A DNA stretch of 64,000 nucleotides, taken from assembly GCA_041664585.1 (NCBI GenBank), contig JBAYKL010000001.1, forward strand, positions 4,592 to 68,591. The letters are read 5' to 3'. Position numbers and translations under genes: made by a program. Positions within the stretch are counted from its first letter, which is position 1, and each line of letters opens with the position of its first letter. The DNA is from Minisyncoccota bacterium (GTDB taxonomy: Bacteria > Patescibacteriota > Minisyncoccia > Phycocordibacterales > GWA1-40-21). Shown here piece by piece: positions 5,667-53,469 of the stretch. The notes below the pieces were generated by a model. The model had not been told where the DNA came from. It saw only the letters and a program-made list of their open reading frames with translations, and did not search any database.

Positions 5667-5776
5667 TATGTTGTAAAATGGTGATGTTACGGGGAATCTA
5701 ACTATATATTCTCAAAGCATTCCTTTTTTAAAATGGTATTTTTTACAGATATAGTGTATAATGGTACATATATATT

Positions 5777-6436
5777 ATGGAAAGCAAGAAAAACCTAAAA
5801 TCAGAACATTTGAAGTTTGCGGTGCTCGCGGTGGATGCCGTTTGTTTTAGAGTGAAAGAAGGCGTTTTAGAACTTCTTTTGGGAAAAATTGGTTCGGACA
5901 ATAATATCTATAAGGGCCAGTGGGCACATATTGGCGGTCTGATATATTCAGAAGAGACGGCAGATCAGTCTGTGGATAGGCTTTTGGGAGACAAGGGGGG
6001 AATAAAAAATATTCACCGGGAGCAACTATATACATTTAGCGATATTGACCGTGATCCGCGCGGGCGCGTGGTCTCTGTGGCTTATATTGCACTTACAAAC
6101 AATGATGATATTCAAAATAAAAATGACGCAGAGTTGGAAACAAAATGGTGTCCGCTGAGTAATTTACCCAAGCTAGCTTATGATCATAATGAGATCACTA
6201 AAGTGGCTGTGGAGAGATTAAGATCAAAAATCATTTATACAGATATAGCCAAATATTTTATGCCAACAGAATTCACATTGTCCGAATTGCAAAAAGTGTA
6301 TGAGGCTGTGCTGGGGGAGGGGATGGACAAGAGAAATTTTCGAAAAAGAATTATTTCCTTAAATTTACTTAAGAATACAAAAAAGACTGTGAAGAAAGGT
6401 GTGATGCGTCCTGCCACTCTGTATACTTTTAAATAA
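5777..6436 (+). CDS. nrtR: NrtR-family transcriptional regulator (degenerate Nudix domain plus C-terminal winged HTH)
   Basis: The N-terminal Nudix fold has a degenerate box (GGLIYSEETADQSVDRLLGDKGG). The C-terminus (FTLSELQKVYEAVLGEGMDKRNFRKRI) matches the NrtR DNA-binding domain. It sits directly upstream of the NAD salvage genes. Confidence 0.75.
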   Translation: MESKKNLKSEHLKFAVLAVDAVCFRVKEGVLELLLGKIGSDNNIYKGQWAHIGGLIYSEETADQSVDRLLGDKGGIKNIHREQLYTFSDIDRDPRGRVVSVAYIALTNNDDIQNKNDAELETKWCPLSNLPKLAYDHNEITKVAVERLRSKIIYTDIAKYFMPTEFTLSELQKVYEAVLGEGMDKRNFRKRIISLNLLKNTKKTVKKGVMRPATLYTFK

Positions 6437-6484
6437 TTTTATATTTCATAGGGTCATTCATTAGCTCTTAATAAGGGGTATATT

Positions 6485-6503
6485 TAGTGTATATTTGACA
6501 CTA
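6485..6503. promoter_or_regulatory. candidate NrtR operator 1 (TAGTGT-N7-ACACTA) overlapping a TTGACA -35 box
   Basis: Perfect half-site palindrome. TTGACA at 6495-6500 lies inside it, and a candidate -10 box TATATA sits about 18 bp downstream. Confidence 0.55.
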
Positions 6504-6526
6504 GTTATAAAAGTGTGGTCTATATA

Positions 6527-6545
6527 TAGTGTAGCATTGACACTA
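6527..6545. promoter_or_regulatory. candidate NrtR operator 2 (TAGTGT-N7-ACACTA) overlapping a second TTGACA -35 box
   Basis: Second perfect copy 42 bp after the first. TTGACA at 6537-6542 lies inside it. Confidence 0.55.
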
Positions 6546-6616
6546 GGTATCGTGTGGGTATATAGTGTATCTAGAACAATATCTAGTTCTTTAACAATAA
6601 AACACGAGGGGGAAAT

Positions 6617-7531
6617 ATGAAAAAGAAAATCGGGATCGTTGTTGGAAGGTTTCAGACGCCGTATCTCCACGAGGGGCACATACACCTTTTGGACACTGCA
6701 CAAACCTTGAGTGAGAGGACTCTAGTAGTCCTCGGAGTAAGTAGTGGGTCGCCGAGTATAAGCAACCCGATGGATTTTGAAACACGGGCAGCGATGCTCA
6801 AGTTTCAGTATCCTGACGTAATGGTTGTTCCTTTGAGGGACATATTCAGTGACAAGGTCTGGTCCGAGCGGCTGGACGCGCTGATTGAGGAGTATAGCGA
6901 TGGTGGCGAGATCACTTTGTTTGGTTCGCGGGATAGCTTCAAAAGTTTCTACAGCGGAAAGTACCCGTTTCAAGAAATCAAAGAGAAGGTTGTCTGTAAT
7001 GCAACCGAAATACGCCGGCAGGAAGCGGATGGTATTCGCAACTCACCAGACTTCAGACGCGGTGTCATGTACGCCGTTACAAAACAAGTGTATCCGATCT
7101 CATATCAAACGGTTGATGTGGTGATCAGACACACTCTGGAGAACAAGGTGATCGTCGGTCGGAAGCTGGGCGAAAGCGCTTGGCGATTTCCGGGAGGGTT
7201 TGTAGATCCGAAGGATCAAAGCCTAGAACTTGCGGCCAAACGAGAGGTGGGGGAAGAAGTCGGCGATGTTGAGATAGACGATGTGAAATACATAGGCTCA
7301 ATACGGGTTGATGATTATCGCTATCGTAAATCGCAACACAAGATTATGACCGCGCTTTTCACGGCTGCATATGTTTGCGGTTCGTTGGAAGCAGGAGATG
7401 ATCTTGAGGAGGTTCGCTGGCAGGACGTTGATGGGCTCATGAGTTGCCTCGTTGAGGTGCATAAACCTCTGGGCGAGGCGTATCTAAAACATATCGGAAA
7501 GTATGAAATAAACAACAGAAAGGAAAGCTAA
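6617..7531 (+). CDS. nadM: bifunctional NMN adenylyltransferase / ADP-ribose pyrophosphatase (NadM-Nudix)
   Basis: N-terminal cytidylyltransferase fold with GRFQTPYLHEGH (HxGH motif). C-terminal Nudix domain (WRFPGGFVDP...KREVGEEVG). SD AGGGGG lies 7 nt upstream. GC-rich. Confidence 0.8.
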   Translation: MKKKIGIVVGRFQTPYLHEGHIHLLDTAQTLSERTLVVLGVSSGSPSISNPMDFETRAAMLKFQYPDVMVVPLRDIFSDKVWSERLDALIEEYSDGGEITLFGSRDSFKSFYSGKYPFQEIKEKVVCNATEIRRQEADGIRNSPDFRRGVMYAVTKQVYPISYQTVDVVIRHTLENKVIVGRKLGESAWRFPGGFVDPKDQSLELAAKREVGEEVGDVEIDDVKYIGSIRVDDYRYRKSQHKIMTALFTAAYVCGSLEAGDDLEEVRWQDVDGLMSCLVEVHKPLGEAYLKHIGKYEINNRKES

Positions 7532-7533
7532 AC

Positions 7534-8919
7534 ATGAACATTCAGTCAAATATTCTTCTAATGACGGACAGCTACAAGGTAAGTCACTACAAGCAGTATC
7601 CAGCCAAGACAAATCGGGTTCTCTCGTTCTTTGAGAGCCGCGGCGGCAGATACGGTGGGGTTCTCTTCTTCGGTCTGCAGTATCTGATCAAGAAGTACCT
7701 CGAGGGCCAGGTGGTTACCGAGGAAAAGATTCAAGAAGCTAAGGAAGTCTTTCAGGCTCACTTTGGCAACCAGAGTCTTTTCAACGAAGCAGGCTGGCGC
7801 CATATTCTTCAAGAGCATGGTGGAAGACTGCCGATCGAGATCAAGGCGGTGCCTGAAGGAACACTGGTTCCGGTGTCGAACGTGCTGGTTACAGTTGTTA
7901 ATACTGATCCAGCAGTGCCGTGGCTTACGAATTACGTGGAGACTTTGCTGGTCCAGTTGTGGTATCCCACGACAGTGGCCACACAGAGCTACTTCATGCG
8001 ACAGACCATTCTGCAATACCTGGAAGAAACGGGAACGCCTGGAGATATAGACTTCAAGCTTCACGATTTCGGGTATCGCGGCAGCACGACGGTGGAGTCT
8101 GCTGGAATTGGTGGGGTGGCTCACCTGGTCAACTTCAAGGGCACAGACACGATTGAGTCACTCGTGGTCGCTAAGCGCTATTATGGCGAGGCGATGGCGG
8201 GTTTCTCGATTCCGGCGGCAGAGCACAGCACGATTACTTCTTGGGGTCGAAACCGCGAGGTAGACGCTTACGAGAATATGCTGACTCAGTATCCGGACGG
8301 GCCGGTGGCGGTGGTGAGCGACAGCTTTAACATCTTCGAGGCATGCGAAAAGCTTTGGGGTGGAAAGCTTCGGCAAAAGGTATTAGCGCGCAACGGCGTG
8401 CTAGTCATCCGGCCAGACAGCGGAGATCCACTTCAGGTTTTGCCCAAGGTGCTTGGCATCCTGGGTGAAAAATTTGGATACACCGTGAACCTGAAAGGGT
8501 ACAAGGTGCTAAGTCCGAAGGTTCGCTTGATTCAGGGTGATGGAATCAATTATGAGAGCGTTGGGGAGATCCTCGAAGCTCTCAAGCAGGCCGGATGGTC
8601 CGCTGATAACATCGCCTTTGGTTCGGGTGGCGGCCTGTTGCAGATGCTCAATCGCGATACGCAGAAGTTTGCTTTCAAGTGCTGCGCTATCGAGATCGAT
8701 GGTGTCTGGTCTGATGTCATGAAAGATCCGGTCACGGATAGTGGTAAACGCTCGAAGGCTGGTCGGCTTGCACTGGTCCTGGACGGCAAAACGTATCAAA
8801 CAGTGAAGGAGGATGAAATAGGAGTGAGAGCTGATCTTCTTATTCCGGTCTTTCGGAACGGGAAGCTCCTCGTGGATCAGAAGTTTGCGGATATCCGCAA
8901 ACGGGCTCTCGTCGGTTAG
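7534..8919 (+). CDS. nadV: nicotinamide phosphoribosyltransferase (NAMPT/NadV)
   Basis: 461 aa. The N-terminus NILLMTDSYKVSHYKQYP and overall length are typical of NAMPT. Strongly GC-rich relative to the window. Confidence 0.85.
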   Translation: MNIQSNILLMTDSYKVSHYKQYPAKTNRVLSFFESRGGRYGGVLFFGLQYLIKKYLEGQVVTEEKIQEAKEVFQAHFGNQSLFNEAGWRHILQEHGGRLPIEIKAVPEGTLVPVSNVLVTVVNTDPAVPWLTNYVETLLVQLWYPTTVATQSYFMRQTILQYLEETGTPGDIDFKLHDFGYRGSTTVESAGIGGVAHLVNFKGTDTIESLVVAKRYYGEAMAGFSIPAAEHSTITSWGRNREVDAYENMLTQYPDGPVAVVSDSFNIFEACEKLWGGKLRQKVLARNGVLVIRPDSGDPLQVLPKVLGILGEKFGYTVNLKGYKVLSPKVRLIQGDGINYESVGEILEALKQAGWSADNIAFGSGGGLLQMLNRDTQKFAFKCCAIEIDGVWSDVMKDPVTDSGKRSKAGRLALVLDGKTYQTVKEDEIGVRADLLIPVFRNGKLLVDQKFADIRKRALVG

Positions 8920-8939
8920 ATGGATGATGAGGGTAGCAA

Positions 8940-8975
8940 CAGGTGTCACGCAAGTGGCACCTGTTTTTTATTTTT
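8940..8975 (+). terminator. rho-independent terminator after nadV
   Basis: 10-bp stem caggtgtcac/gtggcacctg with loop gcaa, followed by TTTTTTATTTTTT. Confidence 0.85.
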
Positions 8976-9077
8976 TAATATTATTTATTAATTTCATAAA
9001 TGGTTAAATATATAAAAGAGTTAAGAACTGCTTATATTTTGTAAAATACAATAATAATGTTATATTAATTTCGCATT

Positions 9078-9149
9078 GGCCCCATCGTCTAACGGTTAGG
9101 ACGAAGCCTTCTCAAGGCTTAAATCGGAGTTCGATTCTCCGTGGGGTCA
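9078..9149 (+). tRNA. tRNA-Glu (anticodon CTC)
   Basis: A manual cloverleaf gives a 7-bp acceptor stem with one G-U pair, a D-arm gtct/ggac, an anticodon stem aagcc/ggctt with loop ttCTCaa, and a T-arm cggag-ttcgatt-ctccg. CCA is not encoded. Confidence 0.8.
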
Positions 9150-9160
9150 CCCGATAAAAA

Positions 9161-9188
9161 TACCAGAGTAATTCCCTGGTATTTTTTT
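9161..9188 (+). terminator. terminator after tRNA-Glu
   Basis: Hairpin taccagagtaattccctggta followed by TTTTTTT. Confidence 0.75.
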
Positions 9189-9242
9189 GTTGTGGGGGCT
9201 ACGGAGAATCGAATTTTACTCCTTGCTAGTATAAATAAAAAA

Positions 9243-9262
9243 GGTTGAGCCGGAGCTCAACC
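9243..9262 (-). terminator. terminator for the minus-strand small gene (overlaps its stop codon)
   Basis: Hairpin ggttgagccggagctcaacc. The minus strand then reads TTTTTT. Confidence 0.65.
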
Positions 9263-9442
9263 CTTAAGGCTTTCCATGAGTTTACGTTCGTTGTTTCTTT
9301 CTTCCTCTATTGCGGTTTCTATGTCTGATACAGTTACTCCGCAGGCGATTGCTGCCTCTGCCTTTGCTTTTTCTAAAGGTAGGCCATTGTCGCGACGAAG
9401 GTGTTTTACTTTCTGAAGTGCATTACAGAGCTTAGTATTCAC
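9257..9442 (-). CDS. small hypothetical protein (61 aa, possible HTH)
   Basis: ORF with an AAAGGA SD. A helical LEKAKAEAAIACGVTVSDIETAI segment resembles an HTH. No family assigned. Confidence 0.4.
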   Translation of the reverse strand: MNTKLCNALQKVKHLRRDNGLPLEKAKAEAAIACGVTVSDIETAIEEERNNERKLMESLKG

Positions 9443-9513
9443 TGTCTAATCCTTTACTGATAAAGTGTGCGAACCTTTTTAGAGATTAATTCAAAGGCTA
9501 TTTTTTGTCAATT

Positions 9514-9538
9514 AAAAAGCCGGACGGGTGTCCGGCTT
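9514..9538 (-). terminator. terminator for the 9537..9920 gene
   Basis: Hairpin aagccggacgggtgtccggctt. The minus strand is followed by a T-run. Confidence 0.7.
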
Positions 9539-9920
9539 AACGTGGTCTGCGGTGTCTTGGACAACCTCCGCCACCAAGTTGACATTGAGCACAGTTTTCT
9601 CTTTCTTCGTCGAGCCTTTTTTCTTCAGGCGTTCTAGTGTCAGAGTAAACTGGACTTTCTTCTGTTTGCGTTTGATTTTTATGACAGGAGAGTTTTATTT
9701 CTTCTTCAGTACCAATCCCTTTTTCGATAAGGGTTTGAATAATGAAGTCCACATTAACTTCTTCGTTCGGGAAGTTTTTTTCTAGGGGTAAAATATTATG
9801 AACTACAATGTGCCAAGCTCTCTGGCTTGCCATCTTCCTTTTTTCTTTACCCTCTATTTTTAAACTCTGAACAAATTTTTCTGTGAGGTCTAAAACTTCT
9901 TGTTTTGTAAGGTTTTCCAT
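9537..9920 (-). CDS. hypothetical protein with Cys-rich C-terminus
   Basis: The start is chosen at MENLT (GGAAAGGA SD). The C-terminus is CAQCQLGGGGCP. No family recognised. Confidence 0.45.
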   Translation of the reverse strand: MENLTKQEVLDLTEKFVQSLKIEGKEKRKMASQRAWHIVVHNILPLEKNFPNEEVNVDFIIQTLIEKGIGTEEEIKLSCHKNQTQTEESPVYSDTRTPEEKRLDEERENCAQCQLGGGGCPRHRRPR

Positions 9921-10005
9921 TACAGACTTCCTTTCCATGGGTTTGAAAGACCAACTAAATTCGAATACAATTATACCCCCATATATTAATTGTGTCAAGT
10001 AATTA

Positions 10006-10044
10006 AAACAGGTCGATTTTATTTAGTAAAATCGACCTGTTTTG
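10006..10044. terminator. bidirectional terminator (long perfect palindrome)
   Basis: aaaacaggtcgatttta...taaaatcgacctgtttt. Confidence 0.75.
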
Positions 10045-10057
10045 TATTGTATATTTT

Positions 10058-10507
10058 CTATTTAAACATCTCTTCCACAGCTTCCTTTACAAGTGCACCG
10101 TCAGCTTTCCCTTTAAGTTCTTTCATTACCATACCGATGAATTGCCCAAGCTTAGATTTATCTATTTCGCCTGCGTTAGCTTTTTTTTCTTCAACTACTT
10201 TCATAACTTCTTCTTTGCTCATCATTTGTGGTAAATATGTTTCGAGAACTCTTAGTTCTTTTTCTTCATCTTCTGCAAGTTCTGGTCTTCCTCCTTTCGT
10301 GAACTGTTCAATGGAATCTTTTCTTTGTTTTACAAGTCTGCGAATTATAGCTAAGGCTTCTTCATCACCAAGAAATTCGTCATTAGTTTTCTTTGCAACG
10401 ATTTCGTTCATAAAGGCTGCCAGTACTCCTCTAAGTACAGTGAGTTTAAAAGCATCTTTGCTAATCATTGCCTGTTTAATTTGTTCCTTTATTGTTGTGT
10501 GTATCAT
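10058..10507 (-). CDS. GatB/YqeY domain protein
   Basis: 149 aa with similarity to the YqeY family (helical, KEL-rich, GatB C-terminal-like). Confidence 0.7.
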   Translation of the reverse strand: MIHTTIKEQIKQAMISKDAFKLTVLRGVLAAFMNEIVAKKTNDEFLGDEEALAIIRRLVKQRKDSIEQFTKGGRPELAEDEEKELRVLETYLPQMMSKEEVMKVVEEKKANAGEIDKSKLGQFIGMVMKELKGKADGALVKEAVEEMFK

Positions 10508-10554
10508 AATGTATAAATATTATCATATTTTTAGAAACTTGGTATAATATTCAT

Positions 10555-11613
10555 ATGTCATCAACAATTATCTTAGGTATTTTGTTAGTAATAGTAACCT
10601 CATTACTTTTGTGGCTTGCTTTGTTCAAAAAGGCAGGAGAAGGTAAAAGAGGAGATGATATTGGTCTAAAGCTTATCCTCGAACAAATAAACGAGCTCAA
10701 TAGAACGGTAGATACTAAAATAGGGGAATCTTCTAAACAAATGCACGAATCTCTTAAACATCAGTCTAGTGAATCTTTTAATATTATTCGTGATATTACA
10801 GAAAAGCTTACAAGACTTGATGAGACAAATAAACAAGTTGTTTCTTTTGCAGATCAGCTTCAATCACTTCAGGATATTTTGAAAAATCCTAAACAAAGAG
10901 GAATTCTTGGAGAATATTATCTTGAAACTCTACTTAAAAATGTTTTACCTACAGGAAGTTATCAAATGCAATTTCCGTTTGCAGACGGCACAATTGTAGA
11001 CGCTGTTGTGTTTGTGAAAGATAAAATTATTCCTATAGACTCAAAATTTTCTCTCGAAAATTATAATCGTTTAGTAGAAGAAAAGAATCCAGCTGAGAAA
11101 GAGAGATTAGAGAAATTATTCAGAGATGATCTTAAAAAGAGAATTGATGAGACCTCAAAATATGTAAAGCCAGGTGAGGGGACTATGGACTTTGCTTTTA
11201 TGTTCATTCCCCACGAAGCAATATATTATGATCTTTTAGTTTCTCAAGTTGGAGCAGTAAAAGTAAATACTAGGGATTTAGTAGAGTATGCATTTAAAGA
11301 AAAGCATGTAATTATTGTCTCCCCAACTTCTTTTTTGGCATATCTACAAACCGTTCTTCAGGGGCTTAAGGCTATGCAAATAGAAGAATCAGCCAAGGAT
11401 ATTAAAAAGAATGTTGAGAATCTACAAAAACATCTGAGAAGCTATCAGGAATATCAAGAGAAGCTTGGTAATGCCCTCTCTACTACAGTAAGCCATTTTA
11501 ATAATTCAAATAAAGAATTTAAGAAGATAGATAAGGACGTGGTGAAGATTACGGGGATAGAGTCTGAGCTTGAAGTGCTAGAAATCGCAAAGCCAGAGAG
11601 GGAAGATGAGTAG
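10555..11613 (+). CDS. rmuC: DNA recombination protein RmuC
   Basis: N-terminal TM segment, a long coiled coil, and a C-terminal RmuC nuclease-like region. Confidence 0.7.
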   Translation: MSSTIILGILLVIVTSLLLWLALFKKAGEGKRGDDIGLKLILEQINELNRTVDTKIGESSKQMHESLKHQSSESFNIIRDITEKLTRLDETNKQVVSFADQLQSLQDILKNPKQRGILGEYYLETLLKNVLPTGSYQMQFPFADGTIVDAVVFVKDKIIPIDSKFSLENYNRLVEEKNPAEKERLEKLFRDDLKKRIDETSKYVKPGEGTMDFAFMFIPHEAIYYDLLVSQVGAVKVNTRDLVEYAFKEKHVIIVSPTSFLAYLQTVLQGLKAMQIEESAKDIKKNVENLQKHLRSYQEYQEKLGNALSTTVSHFNNSNKEFKKIDKDVVKITGIESELEVLEIAKPEREDE

Positions 11614-11647: not shown

Positions 11648-14600
11648 ATGAAAAATCAAAAACAATCCCAATATGACCACACAAAAATAGAAAAAAAGTG
11701 GCAAAAATATTGGACAGCAAAGAAAATTTACAAAACAACTGAAGATACTAAAAAAGAGAAACTATATGTTCTTGATATGTTTCCATATCCATCTGGTGTG
11801 GGTCTTCATGTGGGTCATCCTAGGGGCTATGTAGCTTCTGACGTTTACGCCCGTTTCAAAAGAATGAATGGCTTTAATGTACTTCACCCTATGGGTTACG
11901 ACGCTTTTGGTCTTCCTGCCGAACAATATGCTATTCAAAATAAAATACATCCTAAAAAAGCAGTTGAAGAAAATATTGAAACATTTAGAAAACAATTAGA
12001 TTTAATTGGTTTATCTTATGATTGGTCTCGTGTAGTAAACACAACTGATCCAAAATATTATAAATGGACACAGTGGATTTTTCTTAAGCTCTATGAATCT
12101 TGGTATAACAAAATAAGTAATAAAGCTGAACCCATTGAAAATCTTACAAAGTTTTTTGAGAAAGAAGGTAATCAAAATATTGATGCGGTTTGCGATTCTG
12201 ATATAAAAATATTTTCAGCTACAGAATGGAAATCTTTCAGTGATTTAGAAAAGCATAATATTTTAATGAAATATCGTTTAGCTTTCGAAGGTTTTTCAGA
12301 AGTTAATTGGTGTCCGGAAATGGGAACTGTTCTTGCGAATGATGAAATAATAGATGGACCAGATGGTAAACCAGTATCTGAAAGAGGCGGTTATCCCGTA
12401 GAGAAAAAAACATTGAGACAGTGGTTTTTGAGAATTACAGCCTATGCGGATAGACTTATAGAAGGATTAGATAGAGTAGATTGGTCTCAACACATAAAGG
12501 AAATACAAAAAAATTGGGTTGGAAAATCCATTGGTTCTGAAATAACTTTTGCTATAAAAGGTATGGAAGAAAAAATAAACGTGTTTACAACCAGAGCTGA
12601 TACTTTGTTTGGTGTTACTTACGTTGTTCTTGCTCCAGAGACTGATTTGGTAAAAAAGCTTTTATCAAAAATTTTAAATAGAAAAGAAGTAGAAAAATAT
12701 ATTGCGGACGTAAAACTTAAAACAGATGAGGATCGTATGAGTACTGTTAAAGAAAAAACGGGTGTGATACTCGAAGGTGTAAAAGCTATTAATCCTGCAA
12801 ATCAAGAAGAAGTACCAGTGTTCGTCGCGGATTACGTTCTAGCTACCTATGGTACGGGTATGGTAATGGCCGTACCTGCACATGATGACAGGGATTTTGC
12901 TTTTGCAAAGAAATATAATTTACCTATAAGAGAGGCTATCGTTCCAGAAAGAATAGACAAAAGAAACCCACCTGTTCCTGGTAAGAAAATTGTAGAAAGA
13001 AAAAATGTGCATGTGGTAGTTAAAAATCCAAAAACAGGAATGTATGTTGGTTTAAAATACAGAAAACACGATTGGACCACTTTCCCGATGGGTGGAATTG
13101 AAGAGGGAGAAAGTTTGATTGATTCTGCCAAGAGAGAATTACTTGAAGAGACTGGTTACAAAAATGTCACTGAGGGTGTTATTTTAGGTGGACAAGTTCG
13201 TGCGGAATATTTTGCTGCTCATAAGGATCAAAACAGAGTCTCTTATACAAATTTAGTGTATTTTGAGCTACTAGATGAAGAGAAAGAAAAAATTAGTGAT
13301 GAGGAAAATGAAGAACACGAAGTAATATGGCTTAGTGAAAAAGATATAAATTCAAGTTTGATGACTCACGCTGAAATGGATATTTGGCTTGATAGATTAA
13401 GCAAGGGGGATATTGCTTATACAGATAACGGTATTATGGTAAATTCCGGAGAATTTAACGGTTTAAATAATCTAGATGCAATAAAAAAGATTACAGATTT
13501 CGTTGGTGGAAAAATTGTTACTAAATACAAAATGCGTGATGCCGTATTTGCTCGTCAGAGATATTGGGGAGAACCCATTCCGTTAATACATAAAAAAGAT
13601 GGGACGATTTCTACTGTAAACGAAAACAAATTACCACTAGAGTTACCAAACGTTATCTCGTATGAACCTATTGGGAATGGTGAATCACCGCTTGCTGGTG
13701 TAAAAGATTGGGTAGAAAAAGGTTACGAAACAAATACAATGCCTGGTTGGGCAGGATCTTCCTGGTACTTCTTACGTTATATGGATCCACAGAATAAAAA
13801 AGGCTTTGTTGGAGAGAAAGCTTTAAAATATTGGAAACAGGTAGATATGTATGTAGGTGGTGCTGAGCATGCTACTGGGCATTTATTGTATTCAAGATTC
13901 TGGAATAAGTTTTTATTTGACTACGGGCTTGTTATTGAGGATGAACCATTCAAAGCTCTTAGGAATCAAGGAATGATACAAGGTTCTGATGGAAGAAGAA
14001 TGAGTAAGAGATGGGGGAACGTTGTAAACCCAGATGAGGTTGTAAAAAATGTCGGCGCAGATACTTTGAGAGTTTACGAATCATTTATGGGGCCTTTTGA
14101 GCAAGAAATTTCTTGGAGTACAGATAGTATGGTTGGATCAAGAAGATTCTTGGAAAGAGTATGGAAGCTTCAAGAAAAAGTAGTTGCAAATTTTGCAGAT
14201 TCAAGCGAAACAGAAGCACTTTTACACAAAACAATTAAAAAAGTTGGAGAAGATATAGATTCATTTAATGCAAACACAGCTATTTCTTCTATGATGATTT
14301 TGTTAAATCATTTAGATGGAATAGAGAGTATTAGCGAAGACTTATATTTGAATTACATAAAAATCCTTTCACCTTTTGCGCCACATATGTGTGAAGAAAT
14401 TTGGGCAAATTTGGAACAGAAGAAATCTATAGTATTAGCAGATTGGCCTAAGTATGATGAATCAAAAATAAAGTCTGCGAAGGTAAATATACCTGTGCAG
14501 ATAAACGGTAGAGTAAGAGCATCGCTTATTGTTGACACTGATCTTGACCAAACATTAGTAGAGAAGCTTGCTTTGGAAAATCCTGATGTTAAAAAATGGC

Positions 14601-14665
14601 TTGAAGGTAAAGAAATAAAGAAGAAAATATTTGTTAAAAACAAAATTTTGAACTTAGTAATTTAA
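11648..14665 (+). CDS. leuS: leucyl-tRNA synthetase with an inserted Nudix hydrolase domain
   Basis: HVGHPRGY (HIGH motif), the CP1 editing domain and KMSKRWGN (KMSKS motif) are all present. At 1005 aa it is about 150-200 aa longer than typical bacterial LeuRS. The insert at roughly nt 12945-13430 contains a perfect Nudix box GGIEEGESLIDSAKRELLEETGY. Confidence 0.9.
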   Translation: MKNQKQSQYDHTKIEKKWQKYWTAKKIYKTTEDTKKEKLYVLDMFPYPSGVGLHVGHPRGYVASDVYARFKRMNGFNVLHPMGYDAFGLPAEQYAIQNKIHPKKAVEENIETFRKQLDLIGLSYDWSRVVNTTDPKYYKWTQWIFLKLYESWYNKISNKAEPIENLTKFFEKEGNQNIDAVCDSDIKIFSATEWKSFSDLEKHNILMKYRLAFEGFSEVNWCPEMGTVLANDEIIDGPDGKPVSERGGYPVEKKTLRQWFLRITAYADRLIEGLDRVDWSQHIKEIQKNWVGKSIGSEITFAIKGMEEKINVFTTRADTLFGVTYVVLAPETDLVKKLLSKILNRKEVEKYIADVKLKTDEDRMSTVKEKTGVILEGVKAINPANQEEVPVFVADYVLATYGTGMVMAVPAHDDRDFAFAKKYNLPIREAIVPERIDKRNPPVPGKKIVERKNVHVVVKNPKTGMYVGLKYRKHDWTTFPMGGIEEGESLIDSAKRELLEETGYKNVTEGVILGGQVRAEYFAAHKDQNRVSYTNLVYFELLDEEKEKISDEENEEHEVIWLSEKDINSSLMTHAEMDIWLDRLSKGDIAYTDNGIMVNSGEFNGLNNLDAIKKITDFVGGKIVTKYKMRDAVFARQRYWGEPIPLIHKKDGTISTVNENKLPLELPNVISYEPIGNGESPLAGVKDWVEKGYETNTMPGWAGSSWYFLRYMDPQNKKGFVGEKALKYWKQVDMYVGGAEHATGHLLYSRFWNKFLFDYGLVIEDEPFKALRNQGMIQGSDGRRMSKRWGNVVNPDEVVKNVGADTLRVYESFMGPFEQEISWSTDSMVGSRRFLERVWKLQEKVVANFADSSETEALLHKTIKKVGEDIDSFNANTAISSMMILLNHLDGIESISEDLYLNYIKILSPFAPHMCEEIWANLEQKKSIVLADWPKYDESKIKSAKVNIPVQINGRVRASLIVDTDLDQTLVEKLALENPDVKKWLEGKEIKKKIFVKNKILNLVI

Positions 14666-20769: not shown

Positions 20770-21318
20770 ATGAAAAATACAAAATACAAGAAAGGTTTTA
20801 CTCTTATTGAGCTTCTCGTTGTTATTTCTATCATCGGATTGCTTTCGAGTGTGGTTATGGCTGGGCTTGTGAGCGCCAGACAAAAAGCCAATGCTACAAA
20901 AATAGTTGCAGAAATGAATCAATTAAAGACTGCTTTTGAGCTATATAGGAATGATAAGGGAAAGTATCCAAATGAGGGTAACGGAGACTGCAAAAATTTA
21001 GCTGGTAATGGTAGTTGCTCTGGTAAAATTATTGATTATTTAAGATCTGAACTGGTTTCTGGCAGTTATATACCAGCGATACCTGGCATGTCAATTTATA
21101 GTGAATATTACTATTTAACTGGTTATTACGTATATGAACCCCTAGTTGATGAAGACGGTGTTGTTTTTGATACAAATTATTATTCATGTGGAGGAAAAAT
21201 GTTAAAATCTTACGCCATTTATTTTCAATATAATGAGATGACTTTGTCTTTCCCTAAGCTTAGTGCATGTAATGATTCGGGATGTCTTGATACAAATTAC
21301 TATTGTATAGGTCAGTAG
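20770..21318 (+). CDS. type IV pilin / pseudopilin (N-terminal methylation motif)
   Basis: KGFTLIELLVVISIIGLL is a class III signal peptide. C-terminal Cys pairs are present. Confidence 0.75.
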   Translation: MKNTKYKKGFTLIELLVVISIIGLLSSVVMAGLVSARQKANATKIVAEMNQLKTAFELYRNDKGKYPNEGNGDCKNLAGNGSCSGKIIDYLRSELVSGSYIPAIPGMSIYSEYYYLTGYYVYEPLVDEDGVVFDTNYYSCGGKMLKSYAIYFQYNEMTLSFPKLSACNDSGCLDTNYYCIGQ

Positions 21319-31600: not shown

Positions 31601-32053
31601 TTACTGGATAACACTCGAGCGTCTCTCGACCGTATTTTCATCAACGGTTTCTGTGTACCCACCCCCGTCAATATCTTTTGATGTACGCAGATGTATGGTT
31701 GCTGTAACCAAGCCGTTTTTGGTACTAAAGCTTAGAGACATGCCACCGTCGCCAGCATCCGTAATTATTTCAAACTTTGAATAAACAACCCGCGCATCAT
31801 TTGAGGGTATACATACCCAAGATGGTGTAATCTCGTATGGGCTTAGGCTGTTTCCATTTTTTACCCAGTACCTGTAACAGTTCGGCGCCGTGGACATAAA
31901 ACGGACTATATTGCCGATACTTTCTTTAGGCGGTTTTGATTGAGCTTTATTATAGGCATCGAGTATTGCCGGTATCCCGATGGCTGCAAGAAGCCCAATA
32001 ATTGCCACGACAATCATTACTTCAACTAATGTGAATCCACTTTTTTTGCTCAT
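31601..32053 (-). CDS. type IV pilin-like protein
   Basis: ATG at 32053 is preceded by an AAGGAGAGG SD. The N-terminus MSKKSGFTLVEVMIVVAIIGLLAAI is a prepilin signal. The gene body is GC-rich. Confidence 0.75.
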   Translation of the reverse strand: MSKKSGFTLVEVMIVVAIIGLLAAIGIPAILDAYNKAQSKPPKESIGNIVRFMSTAPNCYRYWVKNGNSLSPYEITPSWVCIPSNDARVVYSKFEIITDAGDGGMSLSFSTKNGLVTATIHLRTSKDIDGGGYTETVDENTVERRSSVIQ

Positions 32054-32220
32054 TTCTTTCCTCTCCTTTTCAAGGTTACTTTCTTGTTTGTTGTTCGATT
32101 TGTACAACCTACAAAATTCTATCTAATATACTAAAACATAATAAAACAAAAGTCAATTGGGCTCAGATTTAGTTTAAATTTAATATTTGTTAAAAAAATG
32201 TCTATGCTATAATTAACCAC

Positions 32221-52977: not shown

Positions 52978-53469
52978 ATGACTAATGCAGTGCTAGTTTT
53001 ATATACGAGACTCAACCCTATAAATAGGCAACTCGAAGTGCTCTTTGCAAAAAAACACGCTGAAGCGAAAGTTGGTGCTGGTAAACTCAATGGCTACGGT
53101 GGTTGTATTGATCCAGGGGAAACTCCAGCTCAAGCAGCTATAAGAGAAACCAGTGAAGAAGCTGGTGAAAATTTCTTGGTACTTGAAAAAGATCTCAAAG
53201 CTAGAGGTATAATAACTTTCTATGATCATGAGATAAGACCAAAATGGAAAGTGTATATCTTTGTCTGCGACAGGTTCAGTGGCGAACCGAAGGAGTCCAA
53301 AGAGATGCTTGATCCCAAGTGGTTTGATGCAGATCAAATTCCTAAGCTCGATATACTACCAGCAGACAAACTATTCATGCCAAAGATTCTATCTGGCAAA
53401 ACCGTTCATAACGGATGGGTTATCTTCAAAAGGAACTTCAGCGGTGTTAGGGGATATGGTGGTTTTTAA
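52978..53469 (+). CDS. Nudix hydrolase (MutT-like)
   Basis: Perfect Nudix box GGCIDPGETPAQAAIRETSEEAG. AAGGAG SD. Confidence 0.8.
   Translation: MTNAVLVLYTRLNPINRQLEVLFAKKHAEAKVGAGKLNGYGGCIDPGETPAQAAIRETSEEAGENFLVLEKDLKARGIITFYDHEIRPKWKVYIFVCDRFSGEPKESKEMLDPKWFDADQIPKLDILPADKLFMPKILSGKTVHNGWVIFKRNFSGVRGYGGF

Follow-up and report, generated by a model that had tools for sequence, protein, structure and literature searches.

A putative NrtR-controlled nicotinamide-salvage cassette in a Paceibacteria-type genome, and the GC surplus that its enzyme genes share with relatives in the Candidate Phyla Radiation

The 64,000-nt stretch of a Minisyncoccota genome analysed here (contig JBAYKL010000001.1, positions 4,592 to 68,591; called the window below) is AT-rich, apart from a short block in which three genes, nrtR, nadM and nadV, lie just ahead of a gene for tRNA-Glu. 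What does this cassette do, and how did its enzyme genes come by a base composition so different from that of their surroundings? A previous interpretation, made from the letters of the DNA alone (the sequence-only reading), took the block to be a nicotinamide adenine dinucleotide (NAD) salvage island, horizontally acquired and placed beside the tRNA gene. The cassette is probably a nicotinamide-salvage and ADP-ribose-recycling module typical of Paceibacteria-type members of the Candidate Phyla Radiation (CPR), with an NrtR-repressed nadM-nadV operon, and its GC-richness probably combines a clade-wide surplus with a recent arrival from within the CPR. It is neither a phage or proteobacterial island nor an island integrated at a tRNA. 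NCBI annotates the host as Candidatus Paceibacterota. The cassette and its downstream border are laid out as follows (lengths in amino acids, aa).

5777-6436, plus strand: nrtR, 219 aa, Pfam domains NUDIX and NrtR_WHD; intact
6617-7531, plus strand: nadM-Nudix, 304 aa, Pfam domains CTP_transf_like and NUDIX; intact
7534-8919, plus strand: nadV, 461 aa, Pfam domains NAMPT_N and NAPRTase, NCBIfam PRK09198; intact
8938-8975, plus strand: intrinsic terminator, predicted end of the nadM-nadV transcript; stem 8938-8965 of 12 bp with 6 G-C pairs, GCAA loop, T-run
9077-9152: tRNA-Glu, anticodon CUC

The domain assignments agree with the gene identities proposed in the sequence-only reading, as does its pathway logic, in which nicotinamide is converted to nicotinamide mononucleotide (NMN) and on to NAD while ADP-ribose is hydrolysed. 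The strong terminator that it placed about 100 bp ahead of tRNA-Glu is likewise present, at a distance of ~100-110 bp. The cassette and both of its junctions are 100% identical in three other independent assemblies, which rules out an assembly chimera. Two independent, short-read Logan contigs that carry the cassette (L002 and L003) both have their right end at window position 9113, inside tRNA-Glu; the coincidence probably reflects a branching of the assembly graph where organisms have a tRNA sequence in common, and no biological boundary.

NadV is predicted to be a nicotinamide phosphoribosyltransferase. It scores 629.9 bits against NCBIfam PRK09198 (cutoff 405), 140 and 194 bits against Pfam NAMPT_N and NAPRTase, and aligns end to end with the solved human NAMPT (6TAC, E = 3e-160), with which the stretches KLHDFGYRG, NFKGTDT, RPDSG, QGDG and GSGGG are identical. 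Within these stretches lie the residues for catalysis and specificity, which in the human enzyme are His247, Asp219 (nicotinamide specificity), Arg311/Asp313 and the GSGGG loop. Two antisense open reading frames (ORFs) lie within nadV on the minus strand (7558-8124, 188 aa, and 8509-8949, 146 aa); they are most likely a side effect of the high local GC content, at which stop codons become less frequent.

The 304-aa protein, judged by its motifs and its modelled fold, belongs to a divergent, short subfamily of bifunctional NadM-Nudix enzymes common to CPR bacteria and Bacteroidota. Its N-terminal domain scores 28 bits against CTP_transf_like (Pfam cutoff 21) and carries the motifs GRFQTPYLHEGH and NATEIR, and R11, Q13, H18, G20, H21 and R133 are invariant in 30 homologues. 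The patterns GRFQ...HxGH, ATxxR and RE-x2-EE-x-G hold throughout the same set, in which R209, E210, E213 and E214 of the Nudix core, REVGEEVG, are also invariant. Sequence searches of the PDB return 2QJT (E = 1.5e-12) and 2QJO, and the top six Foldseek matches to an AlphaFold model (pLDDT 88.9, pTM 0.56) all belong to 2QJT, 2R5W and 2QJO, with ~345 aligned columns and E = 1e-16 to 1e-19; the domain orientation of the model differs from that of the solved enzymes or is uncertain, the global root-mean-square deviation being ~16 Å. These structures, the best full-length fold matches, are the NadM-Nudix enzymes of Francisella tularensis (2QJT, 2R5W) and Synechocystis (2QJO), which have in common with the present protein the order of an NMN adenylyltransferase (NMNAT) domain followed by a Nudix domain, as well as HxGH, ATxxR and RE-x2-EE. 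They are longer (340-350 aa versus 304) and only ~20% identical to it, and the CPR protein differs further by a two-residue insertion in the loop between GRFQ and HxGH and by a variant Nudix box of the form G-x5-D-x8-RE. Its homologues, of ~295-305 aa, come from CPR bacteria at 48-60% identity and then from Bacteroidota at 41-45%. Their usual name is just 'NUDIX domain-containing protein', and Pfam often fails to detect their N-terminal domain.

The regulator has the architecture of the NrtR family, with an N-terminal, non-catalytic Nudix-like domain (Pfam NUDIX, residues 18-139, 33.4 bits) and a C-terminal winged helix (NrtR_WHD, residues 160-218, 81.9 bits, cutoff 27). Read from the sequence, its Nudix box is GGLIYSEETADQSVDRLLGDKGGI, with RE-x2-EE replaced by RL-x2-DK, a degenerate box that agrees with the inactive Nudix domain supposed earlier. 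The best PDB match is the arabinose regulator AraR (5BS6, 142 bits, E = 1.6e-40, full length), followed by NrtR of Shewanella oneidensis (SoNrtR; 3GZ5, 95 bits). In these alignments an Arg stands where SoNrtR has Arg98 and AraR has Gly89, and the equivalent of Arg95/Arg86 is retained (PMC4666351). Arg98 of SoNrtR contacts ADP-ribose (PMC4666351), so the Arg at this position makes ADP-ribose a plausible effector. The likeness to the Shewanella protein (3GZ5, 3GZ6, 3GZ8) extends to family, domain architecture and tandem operators ahead of a nadV operon, although the target there is prs-nadV and here nadM-nadV. Bacteroides thetaiotaomicron AraR (5BS6; PMC4666351) is closer in sequence and has the same NrtR-family fold with a winged helix-turn-helix, but it senses L-arabinose and controls sugar genes, whereas the context of the CPR regulator is exclusively NAD salvage.

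This kinship brings in a competing assignment: that the regulator senses a sugar (as AraR does) or NAD (as NdnR does), or that the 304-aa protein is only a Nudix hydrolase, as its NCBI label has it. Several results weigh against the assignment preferred here and are best taken together. The closest solved kin of the regulator is a sensor of arabinose, and an equivalent of SoNrtR Arg41 is not evident. Both proteins miss the NCBIfam equivalog cutoffs, the regulator with 132.6 bits where NF050029 (ADP-ribose-responsive repressor) calls for 400, and NadM with at best 58 bits where the PRK05379 models call for 409; the regulator is thus a family member below the equivalog level of characterised proteins. 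Upstream of its core the NadM Nudix box is non-canonical (G194-x5-D200-x8-RE), and the common naming of the homologues as Nudix proteins points the same way. NrtR and NadM are, then, divergent members of their subfamilies whose activities are predicted. Nevertheless the competing assignment is improbable: the regulator adjoins nadM-nadV in every CPR cassette locus examined, and the operators described below lie on the nadM promoter; the regulator has the counterpart of Arg98, a position occupied by Gly in AraR (PMC4666351); GRFQ/HxGH/ATxxR are invariant in the N-terminal domain of the 304-aa protein; and the protein as a whole best matches solved NadM-Nudix folds. ADP-ribose-responsive control of a salvage operon remains the preferred assignment, and its DNA targets can be read in the intergenic regions.

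5727-5755, plus strand: candidate nrtR promoter, weak and sigma-70-like; TTTAAA, 17-nt spacer, TATAGT, 9/12 to consensus; a prediction
5751-5771: degenerate operator-like site ahead of nrtR, ATAGTGTATAATGGTACATAT; left half-site intact, right half diverged
6484-6504 (core 6485-6503): operator 1, perfect palindrome TAGTGT-N7-ACACTA
6526-6546 (core 6527-6545): operator 2, perfect palindrome; right arm holds the -35 box TTGACA
6537-6566, plus strand: predicted nadM-nadV promoter, TTGACA, 18-nt spacer, TATAGT; 11/12 to consensus, the best in the region
6562-6582 (core 6563-6581): operator 3, ATAGTGTATCTAGAACAATAT; 1 core mismatch, left arm overlapping the -10 box
6587-6596, plus strand: 5'-leader element TTCTTTAACA, ~10 nt upstream of the Shine-Dalgarno sequence GAGGGGG (6606-6612)

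The hallmark of the NrtR family is a 21-bp palindromic operator with a GT-N7-AC core ahead of genes of NAD metabolism (PMC2330246), and the sites at 6484-6582 have this core. All three palindromes lie within the 180-bp spacer between nrtR and nadM, and the window contains two exact matches to the palindrome against 0.01 expected by chance. Among 170 loci fetched, exact matches are confined to cassette-bearing CPR loci, always upstream of nadM or nrtR, and are absent from the 157 other loci. The layout of operators and promoter aligns column by column in L005, L006, L008, L010, L011 and L016; operator 2 is conserved in L006, L007, L008, L010, L011, L016, L166, L168 and L169, and the variant right arm of operator 3, ACAATAT, is kept in L005, L006, L008, L010 and L011. 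A second CPR clade has a variant operator, TTAGTGTA-N5-TACACTTA. Palindromes that occur only with the cassette and surround the nadM promoter fit NrtR-type repression, and a bound repressor would occlude that promoter, because the right arm of operator 2 includes the -35 box and the left arm of operator 3 the -10 box. The degenerate site ahead of nrtR departs from the full palindrome at 3 or more positions, while the same position carries good sites in L007, L008 and L016 (an exact match in L008), so that weak autoregulation of NrtR through 5751-5771 is possible. The leader element is conserved as TC(C/T)TTTAACA in both operator clades, including L005, L006, L008, L010, L015 and L020. A riboswitch or other structured leader ahead of nadM is ruled out: there is no consensus RNA structure among 15 leaders, and no Rfam match even at E <= 1.

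Activities, effector and repression are here predicted from characterised relatives. In this scheme NadV would convert nicotinamide and phosphoribosyl pyrophosphate to NMN, which the N-terminal domain of NadM would adenylylate to NAD, while the C-terminal Nudix domain would cleave ADP-ribose, the other product of NAD cleavage, to adenosine monophosphate and ribose-5-phosphate. An NrtR dimer would occupy the three GT-N7-AC palindromes, of which two contain the -35 and -10 boxes of the nadM promoter, until a signal of NAD breakdown, most probably ADP-ribose, freed it from the DNA.

The closest described analogue is the NrtR/nadM-nadV system of Synechocystis (PMC2330246), and the module is functionally ordinary, NrtR plus salvage pathway II. 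In Synechocystis sp. PCC 6803, NrtR (Slr1690) likewise controls nadM(-Nudix)-nadV from a GT-N7-AC palindrome ahead of nadM, and ADP-ribose frees it from the nadM-nadV site in vitro (PMC2330246). The chemistry of salvage II is common to both systems. The differences lie in arrangement and host: nrtR is directly upstream of the operon here and adjoins nadE in Synechocystis; a tandem of three sites surrounds the -35 and -10 boxes here; NadM belongs to the short subfamily (~300 aa, ~20% identical to solved enzymes); and the host is a CPR bacterium, in which no nadA or nadE targets are seen across the ~84 kb annotated (window plus flanks). No further NAD genes were found in that span. The cassette may be the genome's only source of NAD, as the sequence-only reading proposed; in one relative with a complete genome (L170, below) pnuC and a nadR-like gene stand beside it. 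The searchable literature yielded nothing specific that links NrtR or NadV/NadM to CPR bacteria, or that deals with GC-rich nadV genes.

The composition of the block is a separate matter. In 1-kb windows the GC content is 0.50-0.52 at 7-9 kb and 0.28-0.41 elsewhere, and GC at third codon positions (GC3) is 0.388 in nrtR, 0.531 in nadM and 0.608 in nadV. The background is 0.255 +/- 0.052 over 49 ORFs, or 0.261 +/- 0.056 over 52 ORFs called independently; with the latter set the three genes have z values of 2.3, 4.8 and 6.2, and all remaining ORFs of the window stay at or below 0.43. The contrast of nadM and nadV with an AT-rich window, on which the sequence-only reading had built, is therefore real, and it extends to the comparison with rpoB and rpoC that it had proposed, both of which have GC3 of 0.23-0.25. 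Amino-acid composition is ruled out as the cause, since NadV would have a GC content of 0.383 under the codon usage of the host and has 0.525; the excess is a matter of codon choice. It is uniform over the length of each gene, appears in every codon family for G-ending and C-ending codons alike, and begins as a step at the start of the NrtR-controlled unit. Translational selection is excluded by the low GC3 of rpoB and rpoC and by the presence of the excess in both G- and C-ending codons of every family. The neighbouring tRNA-Glu(CUC) reads GAG, whose share of Glu codons is 20% in the background, 56% in nadM and 61% in nadV, and in locus L042 a tRNA-Glu(CUC) gene (14202-14278) lies 2.8 kb downstream of nadV; the association may be coincidence.

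Could the block be a recent island from a phage or a proteobacterium, inserted beside tRNA-Glu and retaining the GC content of its donor? Its composition fits such an origin, for the step in GC and GC3 is large and confined to nadM-nadV, and the three codon positions of nadV (GC1, GC2 and GC3) are those of an equilibrium gene in a genome of ~53% GC, with no sign of amelioration. A tRNA gene adjoins the block, a tRNA 3' fragment is near, and NadV is common in large phages. The relatives of the proteins tell otherwise. The sequence-only reading had entertained phage or Proteobacteria as the nearest kin of NadV; the closest named relatives, at 64-80% identity, are almost all CPR (Parcubacteria, Magasanikbacteria, Kaiserbacteria, Campbellbacteria and others), as compared with 61% for Bacteroidota (Arcicella), 55-57% for Acidobacteria, ~53% for Proteobacteria and at most 55% for phages. 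Closest to NadM and NrtR are also other CPR bacteria. The gene order nrtR-nadM-nadV recurs, and the operators with it, in ~20 CPR loci, with different neighbours in each and no adjoining mobility gene. The NadV (and NMNAT) modules of large Vibrio, Synechococcus and Ralstonia phages have in common with the cassette the two steps from nicotinamide to NAD, but at 50-55% identity, whereas the present genes are chromosomal in a cellular genome, with an NrtR repressor and no phage genes nearby. In phages such modules counter NAD-depleting defence.

The site itself gives no better account of an insertion. No integrase or transposase is present in the ~84 kb of annotated window and flanks. Direct repeats flanking the cassette (5613/8979 and 5664/9032) were considered as an insertion scar and rejected, since 9% of control intergenic pairs and 14% of shuffles score as high or higher. 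As for integration at tRNA-Glu, the cassette lies 5' and not 3' of the tRNA gene, the tRNA fragment is on its far side, and the adjacency is absent in relatives save for one distant case. The notion of an island beside tRNA-Glu is therefore not supported, and a phage or proteobacterial origin, largely refuted, can be given very little credence. The fragment itself, TTCGATTCTCCGTAGCCCCCAC (9190-9213, minus strand), comprises a T-loop, the 3' strand of a T-stem and the 3' strand of an acceptor stem, includes a 13-nt perfect inverted copy of the T-arm of tRNA-Glu, and is followed by a bidirectional terminator that it has in common with tRNA-Glu. It appears to be a remnant, either of a convergent tRNA gene or of an old att site, on the side of tRNA-Glu away from the nad cassette.

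Cassettes of CPR type occur on some contigs that are labelled otherwise, namely L005 ('Nitrospira sp.'), L073 ('Cytophagales') and L013, L015, L020 and L021 ('uncultured Gammaproteobacteria'), all metagenome-assembled genomes. Operators of CPR type are also present on L005, L015 and L020. The labels are likely to reflect mis-binning or coarse automatic taxonomy.

With a foreign island set aside, the GC excess of nadM and nadV proves to be a clade-wide property of CPR cassettes. GC3 of nadV is above that of the surrounding genes, taken from at most 20 kb per relative, in 19 of 19 CPR loci (mean +0.21, Wilcoxon p = 4e-6), that of nadM in 16 of 17 (mean +0.11), while nrtR equals its surroundings (mean 0.00, p = 0.89). 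Twelve control loci, among them ten outside the CPR and one CPR nadV without adjacent nadM or nrtR, are without the offset (median logit 0.06). Expressed as logits, the clade medians are +0.90 for nadV (interquartile range 0.62-1.06), +0.42 for nadM and +0.01 for nrtR, and GC3 of nadV follows that of the host (slope 0.77, r = 0.73). An excess seen in 19 of 19 CPR carriers is not the mark of a one-off acquisition, nor is it diagnostic of a recent island. Trees of NrtR, NadM and NadV are broadly congruent (Mantel r = 0.78, a value reached by 0 of 2000 permutations), and four-fold degenerate sites are almost saturated between the window and its closest relative (0.34 identical, 0.26 expected at random). 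Taken together, congruent trees and saturated sites mean that simple recency cannot explain why nadV is off equilibrium and nrtR is not.

The window goes beyond the clade-wide pattern. Its offsets are +0.59 for nrtR, +1.17 for nadM and +1.48 for nadV, respectively the largest, tied for largest and second largest, so that all three genes stand ~0.6 logit above the clade medians. A uniform residual of this size is what a cassette equilibrated in a host with GC3 of ~0.39 would show, and suggests that the cassette as a whole underwent a further, fairly recent transfer, out of a different CPR lineage of ~40% GC. A Parcubacteria locus of ~40% GC (L006) has cassette GC3 values of 0.39, 0.57 and 0.54. 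The composition would then have two layers: a clade-wide, gene-graded surplus (nadV about +0.9, nadM about +0.4 and nrtR 0 logit) and, in this genome, a roughly uniform extra of +0.6 logit brought in with the cassette from a CPR lineage of ~40% GC. Of the horizontal acquisition originally claimed from composition, this weaker form, transfer within the CPR, is what survives, as read from the residual; the clade-wide excess and the CPR kin speak against the rest.

Transfer into this lineage might be dispensed with altogether, if inheritance were purely vertical and a gene-specific force towards GC (synonymous or mRNA selection, or GC-biased gene conversion) produced the whole signal. The clade-wide layer agrees with this: logit offsets are roughly constant over host GC3 of 0.26-0.66 and graded nrtR < nadM < nadV, GC rises exactly where the NrtR-controlled unit begins, the excess is spread evenly over genes and codon families, and the controls outside the CPR are free of it. 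A constant force does not, however, explain why all three window genes are ~0.6 logit above the clade medians, nor why nrtR, too, is elevated (z = 2.3; among 16 loci its offset is the largest). No mechanism is demonstrated for such a force, which cannot be ordinary translational selection because the highly expressed rpoB and rpoC have GC3 of only 0.23-0.25. Vertical descent without transfer is accordingly quite unlikely.

The converse proposal dispenses with the force: serial replacement of nadM-nadV (with or without nrtR) within the CPR, from GC-richer donors, would account for the whole excess. That nadV is exchanged among CPR lineages follows from three observations. Locus L009 combines a clade-B NrtR (8261-8899) with a clade-A-like NadV (10001-11371), its NadM being equidistant from both clades, and so appears to record a replacement of nadV between CPR lineages independently of the regulator. 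The separation of clades A and B, as the ratio of between- to within-clade distance, is weaker for NadV (1.2) than for NrtR (2.0). In L170, the complete genome of a Candidatus Campbellbacteria (CP064977.1), pnuC, a nadR-like gene, nrtR, nadM and nadV (6552-11404) have GC3 of 0.35, 0.32, 0.31, 0.71 and 0.88, and the GC-rich block takes in the adjoining convergent HD-domain gene (0.74), where housekeeping genes have 0.35-0.41. Replacement is further favoured by the sister cassettes L042 and L170, 86% identical in NadV and 71% in NrtR, and by cassette neighbours that are different in every locus. Yet all 19 loci have an upward offset, the GC-richest hosts included (host to nadV, 0.66 to 0.83 in L011, 0.64 to 0.81 in L168 and 0.60 to 0.72 in L009), which argues against exchange as the sole cause, for random exchange predicts regression to the mean and hence negative offsets in such hosts. 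The dependence of nadV GC3 on the host, the near-saturation of four-fold sites between sister cassettes and the broad congruence of the trees also disagree with it. As an explanation of the entire excess, serial replacement is unlikely, if less so than purely vertical descent.

The preferred account, a clade-wide surplus with a later transfer within the CPR, has several findings to contend with. The mixed locus L009 and the extended GC-rich block of L170 weigh against it, and repeated replacement of nadV among CPR lineages could contribute to the surplus. The backgrounds of the relatives are short. The case for the additional transfer comes mainly from GC3 of nrtR (z = 2.3), and for any donor the closest NadV is 80% identical; neither a donor nor an empty site was found. 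No neighbourhood in common with the sister cassette L166 was found, and among relatives of the host at the leucyl-tRNA synthetase (LeuRS) anchor, all metagenome contigs, the best is 67% identical and only the synteny of LeuRS and sigma70 is kept, plus RmuC in L110.

What maintains the surplus may be biased gene conversion tied to exchange, selection on synonymous sites or on the mRNA, or serial replacement with a direction. A tentative generalisation, perhaps worth somewhat less than an even bet, is that a directional, gene-specific force keeps nadV and nadM off their compositional equilibrium across Paceibacteria-type CPR over long spans of evolution, with nrtR equilibrated to the host. Such a force may be selection on the NrtR-repressed mRNA or, if lineages often exchange these genes, GC-biased gene conversion linked to that exchange.

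Other genes of the window add to its stock of Nudix domains, which number four: those of NrtR and NadM, a stand-alone Nudix hydrolase (52978-53469, 163 aa, Pfam NUDIX E = 1.7e-13) and an insertion in LeuRS. The LeuRS gene (11648-14665, 1005 aa) has a Nudix domain at residues 451-574 (~12998-13369), directly after the CP1 editing domain, with a Pfam NUDIX E value of 5e-14; its Nudix box, GGIEEGESLIDSAKRELLEETGY, fits the canonical pattern perfectly. Such an architecture is unusual among aminoacyl-tRNA synthetases. Since relatives that are 60-67% identical can be aligned end to end, the insert is probably common to them. Type IV pilin-like N-terminal methylation motifs are present in two proteins (20770-21318 and 31601-32107, minus strand), the second of which has a somewhat raised GC3 of 0.41.

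The cassette documents how NAD may be acquired and regulated in cofactor-poor, Paceibacteria-type CPR bacteria. Because the short NadM-Nudix proteins are mostly labelled 'NUDIX domain-containing protein', the capacity for NAD salvage in CPR bacteria and some Bacteroidota is probably under-called by public annotation. The locus is also a caution for the detection of horizontal transfer by composition, since the GC signal here belongs to two genes throughout the clade and does not mark a recent foreign origin; if a persistent force is indeed at work, it would yield in every genome a signal that standard methods score as horizontal transfer. Should the surplus be maintained by biased gene conversion or selection, nadM and nadV would provide a clean natural case of non-neutral evolution at synonymous sites in reduced genomes.

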